NCBI GenBank assembly: GCA_905213875.1 | Contig: CAJMJN010000004.1 | Coordinates: 2,370 to 66,369 of the forward strand | Direction of reading: 5' to 3' | Length of the DNA: 64,000 bases | DNA from: an uncultured Clostridium sp. | Lineage (GTDB): Bacteria; Bacillota; Clostridia; TANB77; CAG-508 | In this document: piece after piece, positions 37,748 through 64,000 of the stretch | How the letters are laid out: every line of letters begins with the position of its first letter | Position numbering within the stretch: the first letter of the stretch is position 1 | The notes under the pieces: generated by a model | Database searches by the model: none | Seen by the model: the letters and a program-made list of their open reading frames with translations, nothing else | What the model was told of the DNA's origin: nothing | Position numbers and translations under genes: made by a program

Positions 37748-39037
37748 ATGATGGATAATACAATATTGTATCAAGACATCGCAAAAAGAACTGATGGTGA
37801 TATTTATGTAGGAGTTGTTGGTCCTGTAAGAACCGGTAAATCTACTTTTATAAAAAGATTTATGGACTTATTGGTTATTCCTAATATAGATAATGAATAT
37901 AAAAAAGAAAGAGCAAAAGATGAATTACCACAAAGTGCTGGTGGTAGGACTATAATGACAACTGAGCCAAAATTTATTCCAAATGAAGCTGTTGAAATAA
38001 GTTTAGCAAATAACTTAAAATTCAAGACACGTTTAGTTGATTGTGTAGGTTATTTAGTTGATAATGCAATTGGATATTTAGAAGATGATATGCCAAGAAT
38101 GGTAAAAACTCCTTGGTCTGAAGAAGAAATTCCTTTTGAAAAAGCAGCTGAAATAGGAACTAAGAAAGTTATAGAAGAACACTCTACTATTGGAATTTTA
38201 GTTACAACAGATGGCTCTGTAACAGGCATTCCAAGAGAAGATTATATAAAGCCAGAAGAACGAGTAGTTGCTGAATTAAAAAGCTTAAATAAGCCTTTTG
38301 TGATATTATTAAATTCTACTGACCCTAATTCTGATTATACTAAAGAATTATCTAAAACATTAGCAGAAAAATATGATACAACAGTTATTCCTATAAATTG
38401 TGAATACCTTGATATTAATGATATAAACAATATTTTTTCAAAAATATTATATGAGTTTCCTGCTGACCAAATTAGAATAAAATTTCCTAGATGGGTTGAT
38501 GGACTTGATTTTTCACACCCATTAAAAGCTGAATTATTTAAAGAAATCAAAGAAGCTTTTGAAAATGTAAATGTTTTAAAAGATATTTCCTCTTGTACTT
38601 CAAAAATTAGTTCCACTGAAATAATTTCTAATACTGTAATTACAGATATTCAACTTGGAACTGGAAATGTAAATGTTCAAATAACTTTAAAAGAAGAATT
38701 ATTTTATAAAGTTCTTTCTGAAATTACTGGTGTTGATGTAGCTAATGAAGGTGATTTATTTAAAATAATTTCAGAACTATCTATTACAAAGAAAAAATAT
38801 GACAAAATATCTTATGCCTTAGATGAAGTTGAACGTAAAGGTTATGGAATTGTTACACCTTCTATCGATGAACTTGTTTTAGAAGAACCTGAAATGGTAA
38901 AACAAGGTTCACGTTTTGGAGTAAGATTAAAAGCAACTGCACCTTCTATACATATAATAAGACCTAAACAGATACTTTTTTTATCCACCTCGCTCATTTC
39001 CAAGCCGAGGTGGAAATTTATTTTTAGCTTAACATGA
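37748..39037 (+). CDS. spoIVA: Stage IV sporulation protein A, 5' segment of a split gene (homology ends at about 38962; the last ~25 codons are element-derived)
   Basis: YQDIAKRTDGDIYVGVVGPVRTGKSTFIKRFM...DELPQSAGGRTIMTTEPKFIPNEA is the SpoIVA Walker-A N-terminus. Similarity runs to ...GSRFGVRLKATAPSIHIIR and is then replaced by PKQILFLSTSLISKPRWKFIFSLT. SpoIVA proteins are about 490 aa and continue VD[IV]E[ST]E... after this motif, so about 85 C-terminal residues are missing. Confidence 0.9.
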   Translation: MMDNTILYQDIAKRTDGDIYVGVVGPVRTGKSTFIKRFMDLLVIPNIDNEYKKERAKDELPQSAGGRTIMTTEPKFIPNEAVEISLANNLKFKTRLVDCVGYLVDNAIGYLEDDMPRMVKTPWSEEEIPFEKAAEIGTKKVIEEHSTIGILVTTDGSVTGIPREDYIKPEERVVAELKSLNKPFVILLNSTDPNSDYTKELSKTLAEKYDTTVIPINCEYLDINDINNIFSKILYEFPADQIRIKFPRWVDGLDFSHPLKAELFKEIKEAFENVNVLKDISSCTSKISSTEIISNTVITDIQLGTGNVNVQITLKEELFYKVLSEITGVDVANEGDLFKIISELSITKKKYDKISYALDEVERKGYGIVTPSIDELVLEEPEMVKQGSRFGVRLKATAPSIHIIRPKQILFLSTSLISKPRWKFIFSLT

Positions 39038-40563
39038 TTTTTTTCAATTCCTTGTACATATATCCTATCGATTTTTTCATGTATAAATTCTTTTGTTAAT
39101 TCAAATGTATCAAAATCAAAAAACTTCTTTATTTTTTGTTGATTTTTTCCAGTTTCATTTGCATCTCTATTTACTTTTAATTGTATTAATTGACTTTTAT
39201 AATCCATAATTTCGTCTTGATATTCATTCTTGATTTTTTCAAACTCATCATCAGTAATTTTATTCATAGTATATAATTTTATTAAATTAGCTTTATTCTT
39301 TTCCTTTTCATTTATTGCATTTTCTAAAATTTTTATATTTTTTTCTAATTTAAAATCCTTTTTGTCTAACCTAGAATTTGCTTTCAACATTTCTTTAAGT
39401 ATCATTGATTTCTTTTCTAATAATTCAGAAAAAACCTCACTTAATATACTATTTAATTCCTCAGTTCCAATATATGTATGATTATTACAATTTTTTAAGC
39501 CATTCTTAGCATATTCAGAACATATCCAAAATTCTTCTTTTGCTGTTGGTCTATGCTTTCTTCTCCAAAATTTTTTTCCATCATTAGTACATATCAATAA
39601 ATTAGAATATTGGTATTGATTATTCCAACGATCTCCAGTTCCAGTATACTTATTACTTCTCTTTTCCATTATTTCATTGCATTTTTGCCATATATCGTCA
39701 TTTACAATTTGTGGTACAATATTCTCTTCAGCTTTATAGGTAATCCATTCCTCTTTTGGAATTTCTATTCTTTCCTTACTCATAAAATCTATCACCTCTG
39801 TTTTTTTACCACAATAACATCCTTTATATTTTGGATTTGTAAGTATATTTTTTATTGTAGAATAAGCAAAAACATCTCCTTTTCTCGTTAATTTTCCCTC
39901 TTCTGCTAGTTTCTTTCCAATTCTCCTTATTCCAATATTTCCTGTGGAATATAATTCAAAAATTCTCGAAACAATTTCTGCTTCTTCATCGATTTTTTTC
40001 AATTTACAATTGTCTTTTTCATATCCCCATATAACATTACTGCCAAGCACTCTTCCTTTTTCTATTGCTCTATTAAATCCAAATTTTACCCTTTCTGAAA
40101 TTCTTCTACTTTCATCCTGTGCAAGTGATGCCATAAGTGTTAATCTCAATTCTCCTTCTTGTTCAAGAGTATTAATATTATCTAATTCAAAATATATACC
40201 TTTTCCTCTTGCTAATAAGTTTCTAGTAAACTGTAGTGTGTCTAATGTATTTCTTGCAAATCTACATACTTCTTTTGTTAAAATCAGATCATATTTATCA
40301 TCCATACCATCCTGTATCATATTATTAAAGTCCTCTCTTTTCTTTATTGATGTTCCTGTTATTCCACTGTCACTATAGCCTTGAACTAATGTCCATTTAG
40401 GTATAGATAAAATTTTGTTTTTGTAATAATCATCCTGATTTATTAGTGAATTTTTTTGTTCATTCTTTCCTGTAGAAACTCTTGCATAATATGTCACCCT
40501 TAAAGGTAAATCATATATTGTTTTTCCTGACATTAATGCTTTTCTAATTTCATATAATTCCAT
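38842..40563 (-). CDS. Large serine recombinase (element-proximal)
   Basis: N-terminal resolvase catalytic domain (YARVSTGKNEQKNSLINQ with catalytic Ser, LTKEVCRFARN), a recombinase domain, a Cys-containing zinc-ribbon region and a long coiled coil. The ORF reads through the junction, so its last ~40 codons are antisense spoIVA. Confidence 0.9.
   Translation of the reverse strand: MELYEIRKALMSGKTIYDLPLRVTYYARVSTGKNEQKNSLINQDDYYKNKILSIPKWTLVQGYSDSGITGTSIKKREDFNNMIQDGMDDKYDLILTKEVCRFARNTLDTLQFTRNLLARGKGIYFELDNINTLEQEGELRLTLMASLAQDESRRISERVKFGFNRAIEKGRVLGSNVIWGYEKDNCKLKKIDEEAEIVSRIFELYSTGNIGIRRIGKKLAEEGKLTRKGDVFAYSTIKNILTNPKYKGCYCGKKTEVIDFMSKERIEIPKEEWITYKAEENIVPQIVNDDIWQKCNEIMEKRSNKYTGTGDRWNNQYQYSNLLICTNDGKKFWRRKHRPTAKEEFWICSEYAKNGLKNCNNHTYIGTEELNSILSEVFSELLEKKSMILKEMLKANSRLDKKDFKLEKNIKILENAINEKEKNKANLIKLYTMNKITDDEFEKIKNEYQDEIMDYKSQLIQLKVNRDANETGKNQQKIKKFFDFDTFELTKEFIHEKIDRIYVQGIEKNHVKLKINFHLGLEMSEVDKKSICLGLIICIEGAVAFNLTPKREPCFTISGSSKTSSSIEGVTIP
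38984..39014 (+). terminator. GC-rich hairpin about 20 nt inside the element's left end
   Basis: TCCACCTCG-(13 nt)-CGAGGTGGA followed by AATTTATTTTT on the plus strand. It would stop spoIVA-derived transcription from entering the element antisense to the recombinase. Confidence 0.4.
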
Positions 40564-40671
40564 TGAAATACCTCCAAAATCTTATTTTAATCGCTTGTGT
40601 TGTAACTCTGTTTGTATTTATTGTCAACATTTTGAAAGATATTTCCAAAATTAAAAAGCCCTTATGGGCTT

Positions 40672-42303
40672 TTAACTAGCAATCTTTTGCTTATCTATGT
40701 ACTTAATTATTTTTTTCTTTTTATATAATAATTCTATTGTAATTCCAACTTTTAAAACTATTTCTAAATTTGCTAATCCTGTATCATCCAGTCTCTCTAC
40801 TTTTATTTTATCTAAAATTACATCTACTAATTGTGCTGGTATTCCTTGAAAAAATTCAAAATCCTTTTCAAAACTTTTCTTTATTATTTGCATCTTATCA
40901 TCTATTTCATCCTTATTTCTTGACATTATAAGTTTATTTTTTTCTTCTTCATAGGCTGATATTTTTTCGTTATATATATTGTTTTCTTCCTCAAATTCTT
41001 TTTCATCAATAAGTTCTGTAGTATATAATTTTATCAATTTTTTCTTTTCTTTCTTCAAGCTTTCAATTTTATTTTGTAGTGAAGTTATATCTATTTCAGT
41101 AGAACAGTCTTCAAAGCACTCTTTACATTTATTTAATAAATTCTCTATAAATTTTTCTTTATTTATAAACATTTCATTAAATATTCGTTTTAATACTTCA
41201 TCTAATGTTTCTGTATATATATTAACATTGTTTGCACATCCACTTATACCTTTTTTCTTATATAATGCACATTGCCAAAATTCTCTTCCTCTACTAATTG
41301 TTCTCCAATAACATTGTCCATCTTTTTTGCAATAAATTTTTCCAGAATATTTATATTTTGTATTATAACCAGTTGTTTCGCTTTTAGCTCTTTCACTTCT
41401 TTCTTTAAAGATTTCATTACATTTTTCCCAAATTTTTTCATCAACAATTTGTGGTACAACGTCATCTGTCGCTTTATATTCTACAATTTCATCTTCTCCA
41501 AGATTTACTCTTTGTTTAGTCATGAAATCTATAACTCTTGTCTTATTCCCAGAATAAAAGCCTTTATATTTCGGATTTGTAAGTATATTTTTTATTGTAG
41601 AATAAGCAAATGTTTCTCCTTTTTTTGTTAATATTCCTTCTTCTTCAAGTTTTTTTCCAACTTTTCGTATTCCAATATCACCTGATGCATATATTTCATA
41701 AATTCTTTTTACAATTTTTGCCTCATCTTCGTTCATTTTTAATTTACAATTATCTTTTTCATAACCCCATATAGCATTATTTCCCAATACTCGTCCTTTT
41801 TCTATTGATCTTTTAAAACCAAACTTTACTCTTTCTGAGATTCGTCTGCTTTCGTCTTGTGCTAATGATGCCATTATTGTTAATCTTAATTCTCCCTCTT
41901 GTTCTAATGTATTTATATTGTCCAGTTCAAAATAAACTCCCTTTCCCTTTGCCAATAAACTTCTAGTTAATTGTAATGTATCTAATGTATTTCTTGCAAA
42001 TCTACACACTTCTTTTGTCAATATTAAATCATACATATCATTAAGTCCATCAGAAATCATTTCATTAAAATCTTTTCTTTTTTTTGTAGAAGTACCTGTT
42101 ATACCTCTATCACTATATCCATCAACTAATGTCCACATTGGTGTATCTAAGATTTTATTTTTGTAATATATCTCTTGGTTATCTAACGAGTTTTTTTGCT
42201 CGTCCTTTTCTGTTGATACTCTTGAATAATATGTAACTCTTAGTGGTAAATCATATATCGTTTTTCCTGACATCAATTCTCTTCTTATTGTATATAAATC
42301 CAT
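40672..42303 (-). CDS. Large serine recombinase (second, paralogous)
   Basis: MDLYTIRRELMSGKTIYDLPLRVTYYSRVSTEKDEQKNSLDNQ... is closely similar to the first recombinase over the N-terminal ~300 aa and divergent in the C-terminal coiled coil. It has its own terminator hairpin (AAGCCC-TTAT-GGGCTT, about 40655-40670). Confidence 0.9.
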   Translation of the reverse strand: MDLYTIRRELMSGKTIYDLPLRVTYYSRVSTEKDEQKNSLDNQEIYYKNKILDTPMWTLVDGYSDRGITGTSTKKRKDFNEMISDGLNDMYDLILTKEVCRFARNTLDTLQLTRSLLAKGKGVYFELDNINTLEQEGELRLTIMASLAQDESRRISERVKFGFKRSIEKGRVLGNNAIWGYEKDNCKLKMNEDEAKIVKRIYEIYASGDIGIRKVGKKLEEEGILTKKGETFAYSTIKNILTNPKYKGFYSGNKTRVIDFMTKQRVNLGEDEIVEYKATDDVVPQIVDEKIWEKCNEIFKERSERAKSETTGYNTKYKYSGKIYCKKDGQCYWRTISRGREFWQCALYKKKGISGCANNVNIYTETLDEVLKRIFNEMFINKEKFIENLLNKCKECFEDCSTEIDITSLQNKIESLKKEKKKLIKLYTTELIDEKEFEEENNIYNEKISAYEEEKNKLIMSRNKDEIDDKMQIIKKSFEKDFEFFQGIPAQLVDVILDKIKVERLDDTGLANLEIVLKVGITIELLYKKKKIIKYIDKQKIAS

Positions 42304-42316
42304 ATTGAAAGCCCCC

Positions 42317-42469
42317 TTATATATTTCTAAGTATATAATCTTTCATCTGGTCATCAATTAACCCCTGTTTATTTGCTGAATTTATCAAATATTTACTTAA
42401 TTCTTCTTTAATACTGTTTTCAAATTTTTCTATTGTTTTGGTTTCGATCTTATCAAATATTTTGTCCAA
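42317..42469 (-). CDS. Small acidic ORF (50 aa) immediately upstream of the second recombinase
   Basis: TTG start 7 nt after AGAGGTGAAG. It reads MDKIFDKIETKTIEKFENSIKEELSKYLINSANKQGLIDDQMKDYILRNI and stops 13 nt before the recombinase ATG. It is not in the supplied ORF track because it is under 60 aa. Confidence 0.3.
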   Translation of the reverse strand: MDKIFDKIETKTIEKFENSIKEELSKYLINSANKQGLIDDQMKDYILRNI

Positions 42470-42526
42470 TTTCTTCACCTCTGTTAATGTATATTGAAGA
42501 AATCATTTAAATATTACTGTATTTTT

Positions 42527-42946
42527 TTATTCCCATAATATTTTCTTGGGTACATCATACCCTGTTATGATTCCACTCTTTAAATGATAAGATTTAGTAT
42601 TTTTATTATAATTATAAATAGATGAATTCCACTTTCTAAAAGCTCTATTATTTATTGTTTTTCTACCACCTGATAATTCTCTACTAGCTTGTATATGCAT
42701 TTGTCTTAATTGTGCATACGCTATATCACCATCTTTTCTTTGCTTTCTTTTTTTAGCAATATATTGCATAGTTTGAGCATTATGCTTTTTTTTGTTTATT
42801 TCTTTTCTTTTTTCTTTTTCTAATTTATATCTAAAATCTTTAGTCACTACTCTTGAAACTTTATATTTTGAAATATTTAATTCTTTCGCAATTTCTATTT
42901 GCTTCATTTTATCTTCAAAATACATTTTTAAAATTTTCTCATTCAT
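42527..42946 (-). CDS. Helix-turn-helix DNA-binding protein (element regulatory module)
   Basis: MNEKILKMYFEDKMKQIEIAKELNISKYKVSRVV has a sigma-region-4/HTH-like N-terminus followed by a basic region. Confidence 0.55.
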   Translation of the reverse strand: MNEKILKMYFEDKMKQIEIAKELNISKYKVSRVVTKDFRYKLEKEKRKEINKKKHNAQTMQYIAKKRKQRKDGDIAYAQLRQMHIQASRELSGGRKTINNRAFRKWNSSIYNYNKNTKSYHLKSGIITGYDVPKKILWE

Positions 42947-43016
42947 AGTACCCTCCTGCAACTTTTTGCTAACAGATTTTAAATATGAAGAAACTAATAG
43001 AGCTTATATTAAAACT

Positions 43017-43175
43017 CTATTTAATTTCTAAATCTTCCATTGCTTTTTTAAAATTTTGCTCACTTAATTTTTTTACAGTTTTATATCTTTTATTTCTTTC
43101 TAATATTTCTATGATCTCTCTAGCAAATATTCCTAAACTGAAAGAGATTATAGAAAAAATTAAATATTTTAGCAT
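43017..43175 (-). CDS. Small single-TM ORF (52 aa)
   Basis: MLKYLIFSIISFSLGIFAREIIEILERNKRYK... The ATG lies 1 nt after the stop of the upstream gene (translational coupling). It is below the track's size cut-off. Confidence 0.3.
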   Translation of the reverse strand: MLKYLIFSIISFSLGIFAREIIEILERNKRYKTVKKLSEQNFKKAMEDLEIK

Positions 43176-43176
43176 T

Positions 43177-43464
43177 TTATTTTTTCTCCTTTTTCTCTTT
43201 CATTATTATACTAGCTAATCTTTTTACTTCTGTATTTCCAAATTTTTCATAAAACATTGTTACTTCTTCTTTTATAGACTTGGCTGTTATGTCTGTATTG
43301 CTATTTTTTAATGTATGGAATGCTAACTGTGCATAAGCAGTAATAAGTTCTATTTCGGTTTTAGAATTATTTTTGCTTATTACATCTTTTGTTTTACTAA
43401 AAGTCTTTGTTTCTTTTAAATCTTTTACTTCTGTAACTTGATTTGTATTTCCTTTTTCATCCAT
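43177..43464 (-). CDS. Hypothetical protein
   Basis: 95-aa ORF with RBS GGAGG. I recognise no motif. Confidence 0.45.
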   Translation of the reverse strand: MDEKGNTNQVTEVKDLKETKTFSKTKDVISKNNSKTEIELITAYAQLAFHTLKNSNTDITAKSIKEEVTMFYEKFGNTEVKRLASIIMKEKKEKK

Positions 43465-43520
43465 ATTGTTACCTCCTTCTAATATTAGGAGTCCTATTTT
43501 TTATATTCGATGTTGCATTT

Positions 43521-43691
43521 TTATAATTTTTTTCTATTTTTTGTTAAAGTTTTATAAATCATATATTTTATTTCTTGCATTAAGTCTTCATCAATTCCAT
43601 TCCTTAGCTTACTCATACTTGTAATTAGTGGATTATAATCATCTAAAATTTTCAATATTTCTACATCATCTAAATTAAAGTTATTAAACAT
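43521..43691 (-). CDS. Small ORF (56 aa) overlapping the stop of the sigma-like gene
   Basis: MFNNFNLDDVEILKILDDYNPLITSMSKLRNGIDEDLMQEIKYMIYKTLTKNRKKL. The ATG overlaps the upstream stop. The arrangement resembles the small-ORF/sigma-like pairs of Firmicute conjugative or integrative elements. Confidence 0.35.
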   Translation of the reverse strand: MFNNFNLDDVEILKILDDYNPLITSMSKLRNGIDEDLMQEIKYMIYKTLTKNRKKL

Positions 43692-44118
43692 TGTTTTTTC
43701 CTCCTAGTAATTTTTTTGTAATCTTTTCTTGTGCCTTATTTCTTATTCTCCATATTGTTGTTCTTTCTACATTCATTTCTTTAGCTATTTGATTTATACT
43801 TTTTTCTTCTTTATATAAAGCAAAAAGCACCATCTTTTCTTTTCCAGACAATGCTTTCGCTACATTATATAATTTTTCATCACAAAAAAGTCTCTCGAAT
43901 TCAAGAGCGGACTTTAACTCATCGACACATTTATTAAGAACAGCATCAAATAAACTGCTACTTTCCATATCCTCACAAATATCCAAATTGATTTCTTTAC
44001 TGTTTAAATATTCATAATTATTTTTTATGTATTTTTTTCTAACATTTATAATCAACTTTTTTAAATATGATTTTTCTTCTTTTGATAATTCTTCTTGTAA
44101 ATAATTTTTTCTTTCCAT
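43684..44118 (-). CDS. Sigma-70 region-4-like / HTH regulator
   Basis: The C-terminal KEKMVLFALYKEEKSINQIAKEMNVERTTIWRIRNKAQEKI is a typical region-4 HTH. Confidence 0.6.
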   Translation of the reverse strand: MERKNYLQEELSKEEKSYLKKLIINVRKKYIKNNYEYLNSKEINLDICEDMESSSLFDAVLNKCVDELKSALEFERLFCDEKLYNVAKALSGKEKMVLFALYKEEKSINQIAKEMNVERTTIWRIRNKAQEKITKKLLGGKNNV

Positions 44119-44461
44119 TTATTATCTCTCCAATTTCTAAAAATTGGACAAATATCTAAAAGAGAAAGAAAAACAAATATTAAATTATTTTTTCTTATTC
44201 TTTATAATTTACTTTTACATATTTTTATCACTCCTAACAAATAATCTTTAATTAATAAAAAATCTCTTGTACTTTATTATTTCTTCTAATGTATTATTTT
44301 TCTAACTCTTAAAGACTATTTGTCCTATTGGAGATTATACTTTTTAATGTTGTTTCATTGTAAAAACGGCGATAGATGGCTAATAAACGGCGAAAAATGG
44401 TTAAAATTATTCATAATCAGTTATATTTTTAGTTTTATTTGTAAAAATCTTCCATTTTGTA

Positions 44462-44490
44462 TTGTGTTTACATAATTTTAGTGATATAAT
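44462..44490 (+). promoter_or_regulatory. Candidate promoter of the Spo0A-like gene
   Basis: TTGTGT, a 17-nt spacer, then TATAAT (44485-44490), about 35 nt upstream of the ATG. Confidence 0.35.
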
Positions 44491-44525
44491 ATTGTTGATT
44501 TATAAAATTGTTAGGAGAAGTTATC

Positions 44526-45230
44526 ATGGTAAAGATTCTTTCAGTCATTCAAAATATTGAGCAAAATTCTCAACTTTGCCAATACCTTACGCAAGATAAC
44601 AATATTGATTTTAAAATTACTAGTGATGAAGTTTCTGTTTTGAAACAGTATTACGATTTTAGACCTGACATTTTTATATTAGACACCAGTTTTAAAAATA
44701 TAAAATATAGTGATGTAATCAATGAGCTTTCATTAGATGATACTGAACAATTCAAATGTAATACCATATTACTTTATAACTCTACTACTGAATTATTAAA
44801 TCTTGCAAATTGGTCTAAAATATATAATATATTTTTAAAAACTACAGATTATAAAAATATTTTAAAAGCTATATATGAAATGTCTAATTACACTTTAGAA
44901 AGAAAAATTGATAGGCTATTTTTAAAGTTACATATTCCATTAGAAAGTAGCCCTTCAAATCGTGTTAGAAAAACATTAATTAAATGTTGTAATTCGCCTA
45001 ATTTACTTGGCAATTTAAACACTTTATTTAATACAGTTGGCAAGGAACTTGGAACAACCGGTGAAGGTATTCGTTCTTCTTTTAGAACTGCATTAAAGCC
45101 TTTAAATGAATTTAAAGATAAAGAAGATTTGCCTTTTGCAATTTATAAATTCTTTCCAAAAGGCGAAGAAGTTACCCCAAAATTATTTTTAGATATTAGC
45201 ATATATTATTTGAAAAACACAAAAAAATAA
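44526..45230 (+). CDS. Spo0A-like regulator paralogue (atypical receiver plus a Spo0A_C-like DNA-binding domain)
   Basis: The N-terminal ~120 aa have a CheY-like layout (DIFILDTSF...). The C-terminal LFLKLHIPLESSPSNRVRKTLIKCC...LFNTVGKELGTTGEGIRSSFRTALKPL parallels the Spo0A effector-domain pattern (..GVPAHIKGY.YLR.AI...LY..IA....TT.SRVERAIRHAI). Confidence 0.65.
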   Translation: MVKILSVIQNIEQNSQLCQYLTQDNNIDFKITSDEVSVLKQYYDFRPDIFILDTSFKNIKYSDVINELSLDDTEQFKCNTILLYNSTTELLNLANWSKIYNIFLKTTDYKNILKAIYEMSNYTLERKIDRLFLKLHIPLESSPSNRVRKTLIKCCNSPNLLGNLNTLFNTVGKELGTTGEGIRSSFRTALKPLNEFKDKEDLPFAIYKFFPKGEEVTPKLFLDISIYYLKNTKK

Positions 45231-45272
45231 CAGATAAGTTTTAGTATGATCAAAAACTTATCTGTTATTTTT
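45230..45272. terminator. Bidirectional terminator between the Spo0A-like gene and the radical SAM gene
   Basis: ACAGATAAGTTT...AAACTTATCTGT stem flanked by an A-run and a T-run, between convergent genes. Confidence 0.6.
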
Positions 45273-46465
45273 TATTTATTATTTTTATAATCATTATATT
45301 GATTAATAATATCCACTACACTATTACTTATGTTATCTGAACTTGATATTACTGAATTTAACTTTCTTCCTATAATATCATACATCTCATCTATTTCATT
45401 TTCTTGTACCTTATTATCTATTATCATATTGAATATAGGAATATTATTTTCTAATTTTTCTTTTGAAGATTTTACAAGATCTAATCCGTTCATATTATCC
45501 ATAGCATATTTTGTAAATATCATTTCTGGTTTTAAATCTACAATTTTATGATATGTTTCTGTTCCATCTTTTGCTGTACCAACTATATCAACAAAATCAA
45601 GTTTTTTTATTGCATCAACTATCTTGTTTGTTATATTTATATCATTATGTGCAATTAAAGTTCTAATTTTTCCATTTGAATATATTTTATCAAAATCTAT
45701 TATTTCTTCTTTTAAAGCATTTCCAAAATAATGATCCTTTCCATTTTGTGTTTGAATTATATCTGCATTTGGAACAATTACTATACTTTTTTCAAATTCA
45801 CTTTGTTTTTTATATTCTACAGTTTTGATATTCTCAAATTTTCTTAATCTTTTTACACTATTTTCTAATTCTTTTTCTTCTATTTCAAATAGTTTTTCAT
45901 TTTTTTCTGCCCTTTCTCTAATAGGCATAAACTTCAAAAATTTCCATTTTTCTATTTGATAGTTATTTAAAAATTCTCCTAATTCATCTAATTTATCAAC
46001 ATTAAGCCTGCTAACAACCGTGTTTATTCTTACTTTTATATTCTTGTTTTTAGTTTTTTCTAAAAGATTTTTTATAATATCTAAATGATTATTTTCTTTA
46101 CCTAATGCTAAATTGATATCATTTTCAATTGAATCAATAGATAAATTGATTTCATCAAGTGTATTTAAAATATCTTCTACATATTCGTTATCGTTCTTTG
46201 ATAAGTAAATTCCGTTCGTTACTAATTTATTATATAATCCTCTTTCTTTTGATTCTCTCATTAATTCATTTACTCTTGGATATAATACCGCTTCTCCACC
46301 AGTCCAAGTAATATGGTTTATCCCACTTGCAATTAAATGATTTAATACTCTTTCATTTTCTTCAAAAGATAGATTTGGTATATTGTTAAATCCAAAACAA
46401 TATTTACATCCTTGATTACATTTAGTTGTTATTTTCCAACAAACTTTTTTCTTAATCATATACAT
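45272..46465 (-). CDS. Viperin-like radical SAM enzyme fused to a C-terminal degenerate receiver (REC-like) domain
   Basis: CNQGCKYC (CX3CX2C) in the context [17 protein letters not shown]. By eye I could align it collinearly to animal viperin: [26 protein letters not shown] vs [34 protein letters not shown] vs FKINSVINRFNV, and [12 protein letters not shown] vs RWKVFQCLLIEG. Residues ~270-390 have a CheY-like alternating pattern, but with Lys where the phospho-acceptor Asp is expected. Confidence 0.7.
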
Positions 46466-47492: not shown

Positions 47493-48062
47493 CTATAAAA
47501 TTTTTCTTAATTCTATTTCAGCTTTCTTTATAAAATAATCATTTGTATCTACTGGAAGATTTAATCTTTCCAACTCTTGTTTTATTTTATCTATTGTATC
47601 TAATTGTTCATTTTCTTCAATCTCAATTAGCTTATCACCATTTAGTACATCTTTTATACATATTTGCAACTCATTTTTCTTATAAAGATAATCCATTTCC
47701 TTAATTTGCATAATTGCTTTATAATCAATTGCTTCTAAAAATTTTTTTCCATCATTTGAATCTATAATTTTACAATCAACTTTACTTTGTTTTACTATAT
47801 TTCCTTCTTGATCAATTTCTTTTTTCTTATATGTTAGTTTACTTTCTCTATATTTGTTTGGAATGTATCCTTCAACATTTCGTAAAATTATTGCTTTACT
47901 TAATATATCTCGTTCTGACATATTCTTTATATTAATTGTATTCGGTATATAATAAATATCGTCCAGTAAATATCTTTCTACAAATTGAAATCCTTTGCTT
48001 TCTAATATTTTGCATATTTCTTCTACAGTACATTTTAATTTGACTGTTATTTCATTACTCAA
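47493..48062 (-). CDS. CYTH-domain protein (CyaB / triphosphate-tunnel family), paralogue A
   Basis: 189 aa with a beta-rich pattern starting NEITVKLK (where ExExK is expected) and ending in a C-terminal helix. It is clearly paralogous to 63335..63925. Confidence 0.65.
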   Translation of the reverse strand: MSNEITVKLKCTVEEICKILESKGFQFVERYLLDDIYYIPNTINIKNMSERDILSKAIILRNVEGYIPNKYRESKLTYKKKEIDQEGNIVKQSKVDCKIIDSNDGKKFLEAIDYKAIMQIKEMDYLYKKNELQICIKDVLNGDKLIEIEENEQLDTIDKIKQELERLNLPVDTNDYFIKKAEIELRKIL

Positions 48063-48204
48063 CTTAATATATCTCCTTTACAGTATCACTCTTAAATTAT
48101 AACATATTATGTAAATTTTGTAAAGTTTTAACCAGTCTCTTTTCTCCTTTATTCCCTTAATATATTGCTTTTTATAAAACAAAAAAGATTAGCACTACGC
48201 TAAC

Positions 48205-49063: not shown

Positions 49064-49693
49064 ATGTTGTATTTTTTTATTGGTCTTAGTATTGTATTTT
49101 TTGTGCTTATAATCATATTATTTTATAAGATAAATACCTATAATAATAAATTAGCTAAACTAAATAACACTATTTCACAAAAGGAAAGTAAGATTTCTTT
49201 TCTTAATAATGAAATTACAAGGCTAAAAAATTCAGCACAAATATTAGAAGAAAAAGAATTTGAATCTTTAAAGTCAAATCCTTTTAAATTCTCTGAAATT
49301 CCAGAAGAATATAACGGAAAATTTGAAGGTAAAAAAGCCTTAATTGGTAATTATGATAATTTTTCTTCTAAATTAACTCGTACAATGTTAATGAATTTTG
49401 GAATTTCGGCAGATATTGTTACTACAGGTATTGATATATATGACAGAATAAAAAATGGTTGTACATATGATATTATTTTTACAAACAATATTTATCAAAA
49501 AGGCTATACTGGTCCTGAATTATTACATAAATTAAAAAACATTAACGGTTTTAAAACCCCAGTTATTATTCATACTATATCACATGATGCAAGAGAATAC
49601 TTTGTAAATACTATTGGTTTTGATGATTATTTAGAAAAGCCAATAAAATATGAAGAACTTAAAAATATCTTAAACAAATTTTTAAATACTTAA
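49064..49693 (+). CDS. Membrane-anchored coiled-coil protein with a degenerate receiver domain
   Basis: N-terminal TM segment ([17 protein letters not shown]), a coiled coil, then a CheY-like domain ([10 protein letters not shown]...[19 protein letters not shown]...KPI) with Asn at the phospho-acceptor position. Confidence 0.6.
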
Positions 49694-50404: not shown

Positions 50405-51571
50405 TCAATCTCTAAAATAAATATCTCTTGTATAAACCTTATCCATTACATCAGCTAATTCATCTTCTATTCTATTGGCAATTATAATCGAACTATTTTC
50501 TTTAAATGATTTTATATCCCTTACTATTTTACAATTTTTATAATTTTCATTTTCATATTGTGGCTCATATATTATTATGTTTTTGTTCTTTTCTATAAGC
50601 ATATCTATTATGTCAAATATAGCACTTGTCCTAAAATTGTCTGAATCTTTTTTCATTGATAATTTATATATGCCAATAATTTTAGGCTCTTTGCTTAATA
50701 TTTCTTTTACAATATGTTGTTTTCTTGTAGCATTACTATTCACAATCGCAGTAATAAGATTTTCAGGTACATCTTTGTAATTAGCTTTTAGTTGCTTGGT
50801 ATCTTTAGGTAAACAATATCCACCATATCCAAAAGATGGATTATTGTAAAAATCCCCTATTCTTTGATCCATGCATACACCTTCTATTAAATTTTTTGTA
50901 TTCAAGCCTTTTATTTCTGCATATGTATCTAATTCATTAAAATATGCAATTCTTAATGCCAAGTATGTATTAGAAAATAATTTTACAGCTTCTGCTTCTG
51001 TTGATTTCATAAATTTTATTGCTACATCTTTTTTTAATGAAGCTTTTTTCAATAACTCTGCAAACTTTTTCGCTTGTTCATTTTTATCTCCCAAAATAAT
51101 TCTAGATGGGTATAAATTATCATATAATGCTTTTCCTTCTCTTAAGAACTCTGGTGAAAATATAATATTATTCATGTTATGCTTTCTTTTCATTTTTTCT
51201 GTAAATCCTACTGGAACAGTAGATTTAATTATTATTGTTGTTGATATTTTCATATTTTTTATTTTTTCTATAATTTCTTCTACCAGAGAAGTATCAAAAA
51301 AATTATTTTTTTCATCATAATTTGTTGGCATACAAATTATAATGAAATCTGCGTTACAAAAAGCATCTTTATAATCTAATGTTGCTCTTAAATTTAATTT
51401 CTTCGTTCTTAGATATTTTTCTATATATTTATCTTCAATAGGACTTATTTTACTATTTATTTTATCCACTTTATCTTCTATAATATCTAATGCCACAACT
51501 TCATTATATTGACTTAACAATGTAGCCAAAGATAATCCAACATATCCTACTCCTGCTATTGCAATTTTCAT
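50405..51571 (-). CDS. ugd: UDP-glucose 6-dehydrogenase
   Basis: The start was chosen at MKIAIAGVGYVGLS (Rossmann GxGxxG) after AGAGGTG. The catalytic region is GFGGYCLPKD-like (SFGYGGYCLPKDTKQL). Confidence 0.9.
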   Translation of the reverse strand: MKIAIAGVGYVGLSLATLLSQYNEVVALDIIEDKVDKINSKISPIEDKYIEKYLRTKKLNLRATLDYKDAFCNADFIIICMPTNYDEKNNFFDTSLVEEIIEKIKNMKISTTIIIKSTVPVGFTEKMKRKHNMNNIIFSPEFLREGKALYDNLYPSRIILGDKNEQAKKFAELLKKASLKKDVAIKFMKSTEAEAVKLFSNTYLALRIAYFNELDTYAEIKGLNTKNLIEGVCMDQRIGDFYNNPSFGYGGYCLPKDTKQLKANYKDVPENLITAIVNSNATRKQHIVKEILSKEPKIIGIYKLSMKKDSDNFRTSAIFDIIDMLIEKNKNIIIYEPQYENENYKNCKIVRDIKSFKENSSIIIANRIEDELADVMDKVYTRDIYFRD

Positions 51572-51582
51572 ATTATTCACCT

Positions 51583-52635
51583 CTATTGCATATAATAATC
51601 TTTATACCATTTAGCAAATTTTTTTAATCCTTCTCTTAATGATGTACTTGGTTTAAAATTCATATCATCTTCCATTTGCTTTGTATCTGCATAAGTTATA
51701 GGTACATCCCCGGGTTGCATCGCCACTAATTCCTTATGAATTTCAAAATCATAATTTTGGGGTAAAACTTTTGCCTCAATTAATTCTTCTTGTAATATAT
51801 TAATAAAATCCAATAAATTTTCAGGTTGACCTTTTCCAATATTATATATTTTATATGGAGGTATTGGTAATCCATCTTCTCCGTTCTTTTTTATTGGAAT
51901 CTTATTTATTGTTCTTATTATTCCTTCTACTATATCATCTATGTAAGTAAAATCTCGTTCACATTTTCCATAATTATATATTTGAATTTTTTCACCATTT
52001 AATAGTTTATTTGTGAATTTAAAATATGCCATATCAGGTCTACCTGCTGGTCCATATACTGTAAAAAATCTCAAACCTGTTGTTGGAATATTATATAATT
52101 TTGAATAGCTATATGCTAAAAGTTCATTAGACTTTTTTGTTGCTGCATATAATGATACAGGCATATCTGTTTTATCATCTGTAGAATACGGTATTTTTTT
52201 ATTTACTCCATAAACAGATGAACTTGATGCATATACTAAATGTTCTATTTCATATTTTCTGCAACATTCTAATATATTATAAAATCCTATAATATTTGAT
52301 TGTATATATTCATCAGGATTAGTTATACTATATCTAACTCCTGCCTGTGCTGCCAAATTTACAACAATATCTGGCTTATATTTTTCAAATATCTGTCCTA
52401 TTTTTTCTTTATTCGCTATATCACATTTAATAAATTCAAATTTATCAAATTTTTGTAATTCTGATAGTCTATATTCTTTTAATTTTACATCATAATAATC
52501 ATTTAAATTATCAATACCTATTATATGTATCTTTTCATTTTTCAAATTTAATATTCTTTTTGCAAGATTTGCTCCAATAAATCCTGCAACTCCAGTAATT
52601 AAATACACTTTTATTTTATCGTTCACATTCTTCAC
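51583..52635 (-). CDS. NAD-dependent nucleotide-sugar epimerase (UDP-glucuronate 4-epimerase-like SDR)
   Basis: ITGVAGFIGANLA Rossmann motif, YAATKKSNE (YxxxK) catalytic motif and RFFTVYGPAGRPDMA, typical of the UDP-GlcA/Glc 4-epimerase subgroup. Confidence 0.85.
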   Translation of the reverse strand: MKNVNDKIKVYLITGVAGFIGANLAKRILNLKNEKIHIIGIDNLNDYYDVKLKEYRLSELQKFDKFEFIKCDIANKEKIGQIFEKYKPDIVVNLAAQAGVRYSITNPDEYIQSNIIGFYNILECCRKYEIEHLVYASSSSVYGVNKKIPYSTDDKTDMPVSLYAATKKSNELLAYSYSKLYNIPTTGLRFFTVYGPAGRPDMAYFKFTNKLLNGEKIQIYNYGKCERDFTYIDDIVEGIIRTINKIPIKKNGEDGLPIPPYKIYNIGKGQPENLLDFINILQEELIEAKVLPQNYDFEIHKELVAMQPGDVPITYADTKQMEDDMNFKPSTSLREGLKKFAKWYKDYYMQ

Positions 52636-53224
52636 TTTCCTTTATATCAACTCTCTCATCTATTCTTTTCAATATTTGATTTAATACTTGTTTTCTATTT
52701 TTAGATGTATCTATATACTCTATCCCATATTTAGGGCATTCTTTCTTTAATAATTGATTCTTCTCATTCCATTTGTCAGCATTTGTTGATAAATTCTCAT
52801 CTGATATTCCATATGTCCAATCTTTTTCTGTATCATATTCTCTACATAATTGCATAATTCCTTGTTTGTCAAGATCTCCATGTCCTAAACAAACACAAAT
52901 TAAATTTCCCATGTCAAGTAGTTCTTTTGCATATTTAGGCTCTAGTTGTCCACTTTCAAGAATAGTTCCATAATTTTTAGTATCTTGCTTTATGGAAGAT
53001 TTATAAATTTCTAATATAATCCTTTGAAATTTATCACTATGTACTAATTCTTTTCTTGCTTTTATGTTTTTAGTATAATATTCCTCTCTACCTGTTCCTC
53101 TTATTATTCCCCATATAATTGAATCTGCATGAATTATATTATACTGATTAAATTCATCTTTAATCATATTCCCTAATGTTGTTTTTCCCGCTCTTGCTAC
53201 TCCTATTATTAAAACATTTTTCAT
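52616..53224 (-). CDS. P-loop NTPase / small-molecule kinase-like protein
   Basis: Walker A GVARAGKTT at the N-terminus. About 200 aa. Its 3' end overlaps the start of the downstream epimerase gene by 20 nt. The substrate is unknown. Confidence 0.55.
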   Translation of the reverse strand: MKNVLIIGVARAGKTTLGNMIKDEFNQYNIIHADSIIWGIIRGTGREEYYTKNIKARKELVHSDKFQRIILEIYKSSIKQDTKNYGTILESGQLEPKYAKELLDMGNLICVCLGHGDLDKQGIMQLCREYDTEKDWTYGISDENLSTNADKWNEKNQLLKKECPKYGIEYIDTSKNRKQVLNQILKRIDERVDIKESEECER

Positions 53225-53245
53225 ATTAAATAAGTTCCTCCAATT

Positions 53246-54214
53246 TTATAAATATAAATTCATTTCATTTGAAAAGTCTTTTATTTCATCTTTATATTTT
53301 TGTGATATTACATCTGTATTAAAGTATCTATATATATCTAATAAACACTCATACATATTATCATCAAAATCAATTTTTTCACTATGTATTACTTTATTGT
53401 TTTGAATAATAGAAACATTTCCATCTTTTAATTTATTCAAATCTTTATCATAAAACAAAAATTCTCCTTTAATAACAATGTTATTTTCACATATAACAAT
53501 TACTTCCCTAATTTTGGTATTCGTTGCAAAATCACTCTCATGAATTACATAAACATCATTTTTCTTTGTAAAAATTTTACTATAGCCATGTTTTTCTAGT
53601 ATTCTATTTCCTCTTTCCATGGCTTTTTCTTCTTCAAGTAGCACTTGAGTATCTTTAGGATTATCTAGCAGAAACTGTGAAATATATACTTGATGTGGTA
53701 TATCATGTTCTATATTTCTTGTGACTTTTTTGTACATTCCCCTACCATTGAAGCTTTCTTCTGTCCTGTTTTTAGAAAAATTTGTATAAATAATAACTGG
53801 TTTTAATTCTTTTTGAACTATATATTCTTTAATTTTCATAACAATTTTTGAATACTCATAATTATGCACCATTGCGATATTTAAATCGTCATTTTCTTCA
53901 AAAAACTCCTTATTTACAATAAATGGTTTTTCGACCAATATATCTCTAATATTTAATTGTTTACATTCCATTATAATATCTAAAAATACACTTTTAGGAG
54001 TACATATATCAACAATAATATTGTTAACATCTAGTTTTTCTTTTTTTATTGTGCTTTCTATACTAGAATATACTTTTGAATCTTTTATATTTTCATTTTT
54101 TATTTTACCATCAATATCTACAAAATAAATTCTTCCTATTTTTTCAAACTTTTTATATGAATAATAATGCAAAAAACCTGCTTTTCCTGTTCCTACAATA
54201 ATTATATCTTTCAT
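53246..54214 (-). CDS. Gfo/Idh/MocA-family NAD(P) oxidoreductase
   Basis: N-terminal IIIVGTGKAGFLHY Rossmann motif and the EKP motif (VEKPF) characteristic of the family. Confidence 0.7.
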   Translation of the reverse strand: MKDIIIVGTGKAGFLHYYSYKKFEKIGRIYFVDIDGKIKNENIKDSKVYSSIESTIKKEKLDVNNIIVDICTPKSVFLDIIMECKQLNIRDILVEKPFIVNKEFFEENDDLNIAMVHNYEYSKIVMKIKEYIVQKELKPVIIYTNFSKNRTEESFNGRGMYKKVTRNIEHDIPHQVYISQFLLDNPKDTQVLLEEEKAMERGNRILEKHGYSKIFTKKNDVYVIHESDFATNTKIREVIVICENNIVIKGEFLFYDKDLNKLKDGNVSIIQNNKVIHSEKIDFDDNMYECLLDIYRYFNTDVISQKYKDEIKDFSNEMNLYL

Positions 54215-54228
54215 TTTTTACTCCTTTT

Positions 54229-55251: not shown

Positions 55252-55253
55252 TC

Positions 55254-57468: not shown

Positions 57469-57476
57469 AATTTTTC

Positions 57477-58919: not shown

Positions 58920-58938
58920 TTTATATCTCCTCATATTA

Positions 58939-59724: not shown

Positions 59725-59727
59725 ATT

Positions 59728-61694: not shown

Positions 61695-61773
61695 TTATAG
61701 TCCTCTTTCTAAAAAAAGATACAAATAAAAAACTCTACAAGCTATTTATTTGTATCCTTTGTGGTTTACTTTA

Positions 61774-63925: not shown

Positions 63926-64000
63926 AACTATATTCCTTTTCTTTTTTCTTAAATTATAACATAAAGCAACATTTTTTACCACATTTTAACATTTTTATTA

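Follow-up and report, generated by a model that had tools for sequence, protein, structure and literature searches.

A viperin-like radical SAM protein with a pseudo-receiver domain, encoded beside a Spo0A-like regulator in uncultured gut Clostridia

Viperins are among the few immune enzymes common to bacteria and humans, and the locus described here raises the question of whether a bacterial gene that resembles them, and that continues into a receiver-like domain, encodes a viperin, and what such a domain would be doing there. The gene lies in a stretch of 64,000 nucleotides from an uncultured Clostridium sp. (hereafter the window), in which a first-pass annotation had described a viperin-like radical SAM (rSAM) enzyme fused to a CheY-like pseudo-receiver (REC). 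The open reading frame proved to be real, and all motif strings previously quoted from it were recovered in its translation. Public gene calls start it at Met3 (46459), two codons downstream, which gives 395 residues. Its parts are the following:

45272..46465, minus strand: the query (rSAM::REC), a 397-residue open reading frame with a viperin-like radical SAM domain and a pseudo-receiver
45686..46465, minus strand: viperin-like radical SAM domain, residues 1-260, a partial TIM barrel with the proximal viperin C-terminal extension
46397..46420, minus strand: CX3CX2C motif for the [4Fe-4S] cluster (Cys16, Cys20, Cys23), from translation and alignment
45275..45670, minus strand: receiver-like (beta-alpha)5 domain, residues 266-397, with the acceptor Asp, conserved Lys and acidic pair degenerate
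45509..45511, minus strand: codon of Lys319, in the column of the phospho-acceptor Asp of canonical receivers (profile alignment)

The viperin-like domain and its departures from viperins

The N-terminal ~260 residues had been proposed to be collinear with viperin, and their best NCBIfam, PADLOC, PDB-sequence and Foldseek matches are all of viperin type. Pfam Radical_SAM covers residues 11-165 (E 1e-19), the top NCBIfam model is viperin_w_prok (NF038283, residues 6-250, E 1.3e-36), the pVip HMMs are the best and sole matches in PADLOC (E 6e-41, 138 bits), and the nine top matches of a PDB sequence search are all viperins or viperin-like enzymes. When an AlphaFold2 model of the query (pLDDT 96.3, pTM 0.88) was compared with the PDB by Foldseek, the 18 best matches were viperins, with target-normalised TM scores of 0.74-0.82 and an rmsd of ~2.5-3.8 Å (mostly 2.5-3.3) over 254-286 aligned columns. 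HMM and Foldseek searches, suggested earlier as a check, returned a viperin-type fold for residues 1-260, and the model and profile matches show a (beta-alpha)5 REC fold for residues 266-397. These domain matches are far beyond chance, and the pTM of the model may point to a fixed geometry between the two domains.

The likeness extends to individual residues. Cys16, Cys20 and Cys23 and the GGE SAM-binding motif (residues 56-58, G56-G57-E58) align with C84/C88/C91 and G125-G126-E127 of mouse viperin, and the equivalents of N158, S180/D182, N222 and K247 are also kept. The basic residues of the viperin triphosphate pocket, which we take from structure 6Q2P to be mouse K120, K220, R245 and K247 (together with N222), correspond to a query pocket whose charge is mostly retained: the N222 and K247 columns are occupied by N148 and K175, the exchanges of K220 for R146, R245 for K173 and R194 for K123 are conservative, and H51 stands at the place of K120.

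Membership of the viperin/pVip family, and with it the synthesis of ddhNTPs, was nevertheless not upheld. On NF038283, an equivalog model with a curated cutoff of 180 bits, the query scores 126.3 bits, compared with 270-320 for five annotated pVips; its relatives reach 132-166 bits (166 being the top individual score seen), and none of the 146 family representatives had an E-value better than 2.9e-50. The PADLOC pVip HMMs give 138 bits for the query and 262-323 for annotated pVips. Three features of true viperins are missing. Where the six pVips and the mouse viperin examined carry N-[WFY]-H (mouse N77/H79), the query has C9-W10-K11 and its family the consensus C-W-N; note that in T. virens VLE2 the wild-type motif is N-Y-F, the N-Y-H form being the engineered F40H variant. 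The active-site Tyr (mouse Y302), which has been proposed to take part in proton-coupled electron transfer (PMC8124187), falls in a one-residue deletion in the query subclade, while 75 of 102 family members have Tyr in this column. Finally, the C-terminal Arg/Tyr clamp (RGGxY; F-x-x-R-G-G-x-Y) is absent from the query, as is the tail. Annotated pVips terminate in F-L-x-R-G-G-x-Y-x-W or F-L-x-R, and the nearest stand-alone relatives of the query stop at ~260 residues. This clamp acts on the terminal phosphate, and its mutation abolishes all ddhNTP synthesis by the human and fungal enzymes (bioRxiv 10.64898/2026.09.10.750538).

A neighbour-joining tree of 53 sequences, a rough method, points the same way: pVips and eukaryotic viperins were monophyletic in 84 of 100 bootstraps with the query excluded, so that the phylogeny proposed earlier places it outside the viperin clade. 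The idea that a CheY-like domain replaces the viperin C-terminal extension stands only in part, since the receiver is present but takes the place of only the last ~30 viperin residues, beginning at about residue 266, ~5 residues past the start point of the viperin tail. Judged by its sequence, the query is a viperin-like radical SAM enzyme and not a canonical viperin, and a viperin-like group lacking three features needed for the viperin reaction probably carries out a different chemistry.

The pseudo-receiver, its neighbours and the cassette

The earlier claim of a CheY-like domain in which Lys occupies the acceptor position is borne out by the family profile and the fold. DSSP assignment of the AlphaFold2 model runs from beta1-alpha1 to beta5-alpha5 across residues 267-396. 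The query itself matches Pfam Response_reg (PF00072) at E 1e-4, with 22.7 bits against a gathering score of 30.2, and the receiver family profile matches the receivers of CheB, CheY, VraR and Spo0A at E 1e-13 to 1e-6. The acceptor column holds K, E, Q, G, S, N, R or D across the receiver family and Lys319 in the query; the acidic-pair site after beta1 reads H-N-D, and after beta5 the query has S-S-S, K-P being kept in some relatives only. With these residues the query receiver is predicted to be dead, that is, incapable of being phosphorylated. The literature searched contains no description of a viperin-REC fusion, as had been surmised, and no described example of a pseudo-receiver coupled to a radical SAM enzyme and a Spo0A_C-type regulator. 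The genes and signals around the query are listed here:

37748..38962, plus strand: spoIVA, cut off after codon 405 where it meets the recombinase module
38963..44507, no strand: mobile-element module (recombinases, sigma-like proteins, small open reading frames), which the syntenic locus L033 lacks, as it does the Spo0A-like gene
38842..40563 and 40672..42303: two large serine recombinases, in the mobile-element module
42527..42961 and 43684..44118: two sigma-70-region-4-like proteins, in the mobile-element module
44508..45230, plus strand: Spo0A-like convergent partner, with an atypical receiver and a Spo0A_C DNA-binding domain
45229..45266, no strand: inverted repeat AACAGATAAGTTTT...AAAACTTATCTGTT, between the convergent stop codons
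46605..47480, minus strand: LysR-type regulator, directly upstream of the query on the same strand
47493..48062, minus strand: CYTH-like protein of 189 residues, first gene of the putative operon (TIGR00318 match)
48096..48124, minus strand: promoter-like site TTTACA-17-TATAAT with upstream TG, ~35 nt upstream of the CYTH start, a consensus match only

The query comes third in a putative CYTH-LysR-rSAM operon, and the inverted repeat, a homologous hairpin of which is found in L033, is likely a bidirectional terminator. A search for RNA families and riboswitches over positions 38000-50500 gave only a sub-threshold chance match. The annotation had placed the query next to regulators and a CYTH protein; the regulators do adjoin it, and the protein is CYTH-like by its full-length match to TIGR00318 cyaB, which lies below the cutoff (E 9.4e-13, 48 bits; cutoff 58). 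Its profile also matches the CYTH structure 1YEM (E 0.005), and the protein had no Pfam match. The motif N-E-I-T-V-K, invariant in 11 orthologues, has E-x-T-x-K in place of E-x-E-x-K (second Glu to Thr), and there is one Arg where relatives carry R-x-R, because of which the CYTH protein of the cassette may be catalytically altered or inactive.

The Spo0A-like gene likely starts at ATG 44526, giving 234 residues and matching public calls. A profile of its orthologues matches the Spo0A DNA-binding domain (1LQ1 and 1FC3) at E 5e-9 and receivers at ~3e-8, and 13 of the 19 orthologues individually match PF08769 (Spo0A_C), although the copy in the window has no Pfam match by itself. Most members of this partner family have lost the acidic Mg-binding pair, and the Spo0A-box TGTCGAA does not occur anywhere in the window. 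In an hhalign comparison the fused receiver and that of the partner are both REC folds (probability 96.8%) with 10% identity; since the identity is this low, the fused domain is ruled out as a recent duplicate of its partner's receiver.

As to the earlier statement that the query lies in a mobile element, the mobile-element genes are indeed adjacent, and the gene sits either within the element or just beside it. Stop-to-stop listing of open reading frames, motif regex and tblastn on all loci did not recover the 3' part of spoIVA, nor did a walk through the 10 kb beyond the window or a metagenome scan, in which 80 of 80 loci carry intact spoIVA of other species. For this reason, a restoration of spoIVA by excision is at most hypothetical, and the locus may hold nothing more than a disrupted gene.

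The same cassette, in the order CYTH-like gene, LysR gene, rSAM::pseudo-receiver gene and convergent REC+Spo0A_C regulator, occurs in ~35 species-level genomes of uncultured gut Clostridia (the diversity of the query family being taken from a 50%-cluster protein search). Most cassettes have the upstream CYTH gene, the Spo0A_C partner is adjacent wherever the flanking DNA is long enough, and in most loci the cassette adjoins the sigma-like genes and large serine recombinases of integrative elements. The REC-like domain is found as a stand-alone gene, on rSAM domains of the query type, on an unrelated 502-residue rSAM/SPASM protein and on Cys-less rSAM domains. Elsewhere, related rSAM domains occur in fusion with LysR, in which case a CYTH gene lies directly upstream, or with a PfkB kinase. 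Other variants have PfkB kinase and Nudix genes fused or adjacent, and one stand-alone relative has two CYTH genes and a thymidylate kinase nearby.

The query gene is a mosaic, in which the divergence of the REC domain follows the Spo0A-like partner and not the rSAM domain. LysR and rSAM identities covary (rho 0.99), and REC identity tracks that of the partner after control for rSAM identity, with a partial rho of 0.96. Simple genetic linkage between neighbouring stretches of DNA could account for this, with no need of a physical interaction; the loci are also phylogenetically non-independent. In L016/L017, for instance, identity is 91-92% for the rSAM domain, 44% for the REC domain and 29-30% for the Spo0A-like partner.

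Possible roles of the system

These observations point to an enzyme-plus-regulator system that the literature searched does not describe. The best overall reading, to which we assign a probability of about one half, is that of a non-canonical, nucleotide-directed viperin-like radical SAM enzyme coupled through a dead receiver to a Spo0A-family regulator. A phosphorylated nucleoside-type substrate would be bound and radically modified by the rSAM domain, probably in concert with the CYTH-like protein, in a reaction unlike that of viperin; the nature of this substrate is suggested solely by the conserved basic residues and the families of the neighbouring genes. A receiver unable to be phosphorylated would sit where the C-terminal tail of viperin gates the active site, and could serve as a protein-protein adaptor, either docking on the receiver of its cognate Spo0A-like regulator or forming REC-REC dimers. 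Through this contact the state of the enzyme might be reported to the Spo0A-like transcription factor, or that factor might gate the active site at the position of the viperin tail. The LysR protein would control the operon or sense its product, and candidate outputs are defence against viruses, regulation by the element of its excision or transfer, and host development. A more specific version, in which a system borne by the mobile element uses the viperin-like enzyme and the CYTH protein to make or sense a modified nucleotide and the cognate pseudo-receiver directly controls the Spo0A-paralogue factor, is held only tentatively and is itself rather doubtful.

The original expectation, a bona fide pVip that makes chain-terminating ddhNTPs against phage with the receiver as an allosteric switch, appears quite unlikely to us, even if the pVip HMMs are the best and sole PADLOC matches (138 bits), the top structural matches are viperins and several triphosphate-pocket residues are conserved. 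In addition, the cassette is mobile-element cargo, two diverged loci adjoin restriction-modification genes and a PemK toxin, and the kinase partners echo known pVip-kinase pairs. However, 126 bits falls short of the 180-bit cutoff and of the 270-320 bits of annotated pVips, N-x-H, Tyr302 and the Arg/Tyr clamp are missing, and the viperin clade excludes the query in 84 of 100 replicates of the crude bootstrap; moreover, Cys-less orthologues retain receiver and partner, and PADLOC run on the CYTH, LysR, Spo0A-like and TM-REC proteins found nothing specific, these partners matching no defence model. That the protein belongs to another radical SAM type (MoaA-like, peptide-modifying or a cofactor maturase) and resembles viperin at the superfamily level only is highly improbable. 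Models of MoaA, SkfB and SPASM maturases do match the query core, at 86 bits or less, and a different rSAM/SPASM enzyme can fill the same position in the cassette, but the family profile finds viperins at E 1e-43 to 1e-39 as against 3e-25 for SkfB and 3e-24 for MoaA, its alignment extends to mouse viperin residue 345, i.e., through the viperin-specific C-terminal extension, and the Foldseek TM score is 0.50-0.61 to MoaA as against 0.74-0.82 to viperins. Neither a SPASM/twitch cysteine cluster nor an RRE domain is present in the query, and a precursor-peptide-like open reading frame was not found in the operon.

In a further reading, also unlikely, the rSAM domain would serve chiefly to sense Fe-S/redox state, SAM or nucleotide occupancy on behalf of a pseudo-receiver/Spo0A-like/LysR circuit that controls the element or host development, with turnover secondary or absent. 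The two diverged orthologues P0141 and P0176 have lost the CX3CX2C cysteines and yet keep a full-length rSAM domain, the receiver and the Spo0A_C neighbour, which implies that catalysis is not always required for the conserved function; the loss of the catalytic Tyr in the query subclade, the relatives fused directly to a LysR DNA-binding regulator, the degenerate metal-binding motif of the CYTH partner and the sigma-like and recombinase genes that the cassette abuts in most loci are in keeping with such a circuit. On the other hand, the query and most orthologues strictly preserve the cluster cysteines, GGE and the pocket residues, and partners of the kinase and Nudix types point to a genuine flow of metabolites. 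Conservation within the gene is highest in the rSAM domain, at 91-92% identity where REC is at 44%, which argues for a constrained, active enzyme.

Current defence-finding HMMs would match (at 138 bits for PADLOC pVip) a sizeable sister group of viperins that probably has a different chemistry, and the CYTH, LysR, PfkB kinase and Nudix genes to which this group is repeatedly linked offer testable leads to the substrate. Over 1000 public contigs carry the exact query protein, and those contigs and genome bins that were inspected stem from gut samples, so that any role, be it in phage defence, element mobility or sporulation, would concern a common uncultured member of the microbiome. If the non-canonical enzyme is indeed coupled to the Spo0A-like regulator, radical nucleotide chemistry would be wired, in abundant human-gut Clostridia, to sporulation-type regulation, element excision or a new inducible anti-phage response, and a modular pseudo-receiver, swapped together with its Spo0A-like partner and carried on various radical SAM enzymes, would represent a new form of coupling between enzyme and transcription factor.

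Comparison with known systems

The closest relatives of the query are pVips and RSAD2 (NF038283, TIGR04278; 5VSL, 6Q2P, 7N7H, 7N7I, 9DFN), with which it shares the partial (beta-alpha)6 TIM barrel and a run of collinear motifs that reaches into the near part of the C-terminal extension. Also common to both are CX3CX2C and GGE, conserved Asn and basic residues where mouse viperin has K220, N222, R245 and K247, occurrence on mobile DNA and an association with nucleotide-metabolism genes. They differ in that the query has C-W-K in place of N-x-H, a deletion at Tyr302 and a receiver domain in place of the C-terminal clamp and tail, and in their partners, which are a CYTH protein, LysR and a Spo0A-like factor for the query and none or an NMP kinase for pVips. 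Shomar et al. (bioRxiv 10.1101/2023.09.13.557418) reported viperins of eukaryotes in fusion with a 'triphosphatase or cyclase' (COG1437/CyaB) domain and with kinases; as here, a viperin-type enzyme is linked genetically to a CYTH/CyaB-type protein and to kinases. In their case the partners are fused to true viperins of eukaryotes and no receiver or Spo0A-like partner is mentioned, whereas here CYTH is a separate gene upstream of a bacterial viperin-like enzyme. Intervening elements of the skin type, which are inserted in sporulation genes, encode a large serine recombinase (Serrano et al., PMC5025042; Abe et al., PMC5595907), and the present locus likewise has large serine recombinase genes at the junction of a truncated sporulation gene (spoIVA, on the opposite strand); it differs in that no 3' part of spoIVA with which a regulated excision could restore the gene came to light.

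The partner gene has the receiver plus Spo0A_C helix-turn-helix architecture of Spo0A (PF08769; 1LQ1, 1FC3, 1DZ3), but is a short, diverged paralogue beside recombinase genes and has no canonical 0A boxes nearby. Pseudo-receivers such as the N-terminal domain of KaiA and the Asp-less receiver of FrzS have the CheY fold and have lost the phospho-acceptor Asp. The query receiver shares with them this fold without the active-site residues, and would, like them, be expected to serve as a protein-interaction module; what sets it apart from the KaiA/FrzS type is its fusion to, or pairing with, radical SAM enzymes and its genetic coupling to a Spo0A_C regulator.

The fusion protein and its fold

The gene under study is listed here with the neighbouring features that enter the argument.

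Features of the window
45272..46465, minus: radical SAM (rSAM)::receiver (REC) fusion gene, intact, 397 aa
46605..47480, minus: LysR-type regulator, directly upstream of the fusion gene
47493..48062, minus: CYTH-like protein, 189 aa, full-length match to TIGR00318
44508..45230, convergent to the fusion gene: Spo0A-like partner gene, assigned by orthologue profile
45229..45266: inverted repeat between the convergent stop codons
37748..39037, plus: truncated spoIVA, cut after codon 405 (...APSIHIIR; junction 38962/38963) exactly where the serine-recombinase module starts
38842..40563 and 40672..42303, both minus: tandem large serine recombinases, 56% identical to each other

Public gene calls start at Met3, giving 395 aa, and the identical 395-aa protein occurs on more than 1000 public contigs. 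The first-pass annotation, whose quoted peptide strings were all found in the translation, had proposed a viperin-type rSAM domain fused to a CheY-like domain, and the profile and structure searches that it recommended confirm a viperin-type rSAM domain fused to a pseudo-receiver. In Pfam, residues 11-165 match Radical_SAM (E 1e-19), and residues 270-345 give a weak Response_reg match (E 1e-4, under the gathering score). The NCBIfam model NF038283, "viperin family antiviral radical SAM protein", ranks first by far (126 bits, residues 6-250), with MoaA second at 86 bits; pVip (prokaryotic viperin) models are the sole PADLOC matches (138 bits), and the top nine matches among PDB sequences are viperins or viperin-like enzymes. 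An AlphaFold2 model built from 146 diverse relatives (mean pLDDT 96.3, pTM 0.88) has viperin structures as its best 18 Foldseek PDB matches (target-normalised TM 0.74-0.82), against 0.50-0.61 for MoaA in the same comparison, and displays a clean receiver topology, beta1-alpha1 to beta5-alpha5, at residues 267-396.

The family profile of the C-terminal domain matches the receivers of CheB, CheY, VraR and Spo0A (E 1e-13 to 1e-6), and its alignments to known receivers place Lys319 in the phospho-acceptor Asp column, as had been read from the sequence. In relatives this column holds K, E, Q, G, S, N, R or D, with similar degeneracy at the acidic pair and the beta5 Lys; the receiver domain of the query is not phosphorylatable.

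Full-text literature searches returned no paper in which a receiver domain, CYTH, LysR or Spo0A is joined to viperin or radical SAM, in agreement with the earlier remark that no description of such a fusion was known. The broad viperin survey of Shomar et al. (bioRxiv 10.1101/2023.09.13.557418) covers kinase, E3-ligase, cyclase/triphosphatase and reverse-transcriptase fusions, a receiver not being among them, and one automatic annotation already labels the protein "radical SAM enzyme/CheY-like".

Position relative to the viperin family

The query retains the CX3CX2C cluster (C16, C20, C23), GGE, the TNG Asn, the LSxD motif and the INTVV Asn (mouse viperin N222), and the positions of mouse K220, R245 and K247 are still basic (R146, K173, K175). 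Three viperin-specific catalytic or substrate features are lost beside this radical SAM active site and largely conserved basic pocket, in which His stands for mouse K120. The N-x-H motif, kept in mouse viperin and six extracted pVips, has become C9-W-K11 (family consensus C-W-N). The query's subclade has a one-residue deletion that takes out the active-site Tyr (mouse Y302), which a review links to proton-coupled electron transfer (PMC8124187). Finally, the query has no C-terminal tail carrying the R-G-G-x-Y clamp; mutation of the Arg/Tyr clamp is reported to abolish all ddhNTP formation by human and fungal enzymes (2026 preprint, bioRxiv 10.64898/2026.09.10.750538). The receiver starts about five residues past the last helix common to the query and viperin, and the closest stand-alone relatives end at ~260 aa; the suggestion that the receiver replaces the viperin C-terminal extension holds for its last ~30 residues but not for the remainder.

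Scores were calibrated on five plasmid-borne proteins annotated as viperins, which reach 270-320 bits with NF038283 (cutoff 180 bits) and 262-323 bits with the PADLOC pVip HMMs, versus 126-166 and 138-168 bits for the query and its relatives. For 146 representatives of the query's family the best NF038283 E-value is 2.9e-50, and the top individual score seen, 166 bits, lies below the cutoff. In the phylogeny against pVips that had been recommended, pVips and eukaryotic viperins form a clade without the query in 84/100 bootstraps (neighbour-joining, a crude method). Taken with the lost motifs, these results fail to bear out the membership of the viperin family first proposed. The sequence comparisons place the query outside that family as defined, in a viperin-like sister radiation with the hallmark "vCWNIT..CNxxCxFC". 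This radiation is far nearer to viperin than to either MoaA or the SPASM enzymes (family profile E 1e-43 for viperins vs 1e-24 for MoaA/SPASM enzymes).

Partner genes, cassette and mobile element

The CYTH-like protein is assigned by TIGR00318 (class IV adenylate cyclase, CYTH; E 9e-13, 48 bits, below the cutoff of 58), and the regulators and CYTH protein first named as neighbours are upheld. The CYTH orthologue profile also matches the CYTH structure 1YEM (E 0.005); the CYTH-like protein has a degenerate motif, E-x-T-x-K. The region's best promoter-like site (TTTACA-17-TATAAT, with TG) lies just upstream of the CYTH-like gene, and we infer a three-gene operon, CYTH-LysR-rSAM::REC. In L002 and L008 (8398..8967 in each, equivalent to 47493..48062) the CYTH-like gene is broken into two ORFs of 91 and 72 aa, and rSAM::REC is intact.

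The convergent gene product alone has no Pfam match. Orthologues beside diverged fusion copies carry PF08769 (Spo0A_C), and a profile of 19 partner orthologues matches the Spo0A DNA-binding structures 1LQ1 and 1FC3 (E 5e-9) and receivers including Spo0A (~3e-8), with the acceptor Asp mostly retained and the acidic pair mostly gone. The product is a Spo0A paralogue with an atypical receiver. Past it lie two sigma-70-region-4-like proteins, small ORFs and the tandem recombinases. On the other side, the product of 49064..49693 (plus) is a coiled-coil protein anchored in the membrane, and the receiver at its C-terminus has a non-Asp acceptor by eye (DIIFTNN); this would-be third atypical receiver protein within a 5-kb stretch is kept only in the close relatives L012, L013, L017, L018 and L023.

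One scan of species-representative genomes gave 52 related loci. The cassette (CYTH, LysR, rSAM::REC and the convergent REC+Spo0A_C gene) is present in about 35 of them, and sigma-like genes plus one or two serine recombinases, of different lineages by locus, usually come after it. In L030, L031 and L040, rSAM and REC are separate genes with a PfkB-type kinase in between; L032 and L036 carry an rSAM::PfkB fusion, then a stand-alone REC, a second rSAM-like protein and a Nudix hydrolase. In the same cassette of L037, L038, L041 and L050, an unrelated 502-aa rSAM with a Cys-rich SPASM-like region is fused to the same REC. Two full-length orthologues (P0141 in L010, P0176 in L011; 30-32% identity) have lost all three cluster cysteines, retain the REC domain and the Spo0A_C neighbour, and look like pseudo-enzyme forms of this system. 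Beyond the cassette clade, a CYTH gene lies 3 nt upstream of rSAM::LysR fusions; one stand-alone relative has two CYTH genes and a thymidylate kinase on its flanks. The genetic pairing of the fusion with a Spo0A-family regulator is obligate, and CYTH, LysR, kinase and Nudix genes are recurrently linked to the rSAM family. Restriction-modification genes and a PemK toxin lie beside the cassette in two diverged loci.

Two side cases concern gene integrity. P0131 (326 aa, from the representatives search) joins a segment resembling, by eye, a tyrosine-recombinase N-terminal domain to the last ~190 residues of rSAM::REC, which points to the insertion of a further element into the gene or to an artefact of assembly. 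In L004, an IS element with an rve-family transposase (5338..6692) lies just outside the cassette, between His-phosphatase and TM-REC genes, in one strain.

LysR and the rSAM domain covary in their identity to the window (rho 0.99), and REC identity tracks that of the Spo0A-like partner given rSAM identity (partial rho 0.96): L016 and L017 have 91-92% identity in rSAM, 44% in REC and 29-30% in the partner. The fusion gene is a mosaic. The identities are also suggestive of REC and the partner being a cognate pair, only suggestive because the loci are non-independent and adjacent DNA is linked. Comparison of L012 with L013 and the window shows 97-100% identity between two genomes over the part of the cassette that runs from CYTH to the first sigma-like gene; the downstream recombinase modules are wholly different (a single 599-aa recombinase at 37% identity vs the tandem pair), which indicates recent modular exchange.

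In comparison with the syntenic L033 (chicken-gut MAG), 38963..45271, holding two recombinases, sigma-like genes and the Spo0A-like gene, stands where spoIVA codons 406-449 would be. In L033 an intact spoIVA is directly convergent with a decayed LysR-rSAM-REC cassette, and a terminator hairpin is common to both; the recombinase module is clearly an insertion or replacement. The fusion adjoins a regulation and recombination module of integrative elements. Its location in a mobile element, as first described, holds in part: the whole cassette travels with recombinase modules across species, but the rSAM gene itself is only at the module edge. The distal recombinase ORF runs ~35-40 codons past the junction into the spoIVA antisense strand, and the antisense of other species' intact spoIVA genes matches its C-terminus.

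The truncated spoIVA is without its SpoIVA_C domain, and a search of the window, the next 10 kb and 80 metagenome loci did not turn up its 3' fragment. Excision of skin-type elements restores the gene, whereas here, with no 3' piece found, there are two candidate readings for this prevalent gut species: a skin-like intervening element whose other end is distant, or a sporulation gene that has been disrupted. Strains differ in the regions that lie past spoIVA on its far side. Upstream of the spoIVA region, a gene for an 809-aa LonC-type (LonB-like AAA plus Lon_C) protease (31034..33463, plus) adjoins DUF4363 and YetF genes and appears to have no relation to the fusion. A long same-strand cluster (50405..64000, minus; also L064-L067) encodes UDP-glucose dehydrogenase, epimerase, two APH-type kinases, two PHP-domain proteins, and HPr-kinase-like, AP-endonuclease-2-fold, AdoHcyase-like NAD domain and Nudix proteins; it looks like a pathway for an unusual sugar or nucleotide-derived polymer or metabolite.

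Candidate function and comparison with viperins

We give roughly even odds (about 0.5) to a non-viperin, nucleoside-directed rSAM enzyme whose pseudo-receiver is an adaptor to the Spo0A-like regulator, with LysR as controller or sensor. The enzyme, probably with the CYTH-like protein, would act on a phosphorylated nucleoside-type substrate in a reaction other than the canonical viperin dehydration. The pseudo-receiver, placed exactly where the viperin gating tail would begin, could pass the state of the enzyme to transcription through its cognate regulator, or the regulator could gate the active site, and LysR would control the operon or sense its product.

A mainly sensory, non-catalytic module is unlikely: the Cys-less copies, the loss of Tyr, the fusions to LysR and the degenerate CYTH motif speak for it, but the rSAM domain is very highly conserved, which speaks against it. 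A true pVip under regulation is less likely still, weakened by the failed membership tests and the Cys-less orthologues, and assignment to another rSAM class is very improbable.

The family is uncharacterised and viperin-like, with a new regulatory architecture. What should surprise a specialist is the cassette itself, and that defence HMMs would match a non-viperin. Viperin and the query are alike in CX3CX2C, GGE and the fold, and the query mostly keeps the charge of the basic residues at the K220, R245 and K247 positions; viperin has N-x-H, Tyr302 and the R-G-G-x-Y tail, whereas the query has C-W-K, a deleted Tyr and a receiver domain, the tail being absent.
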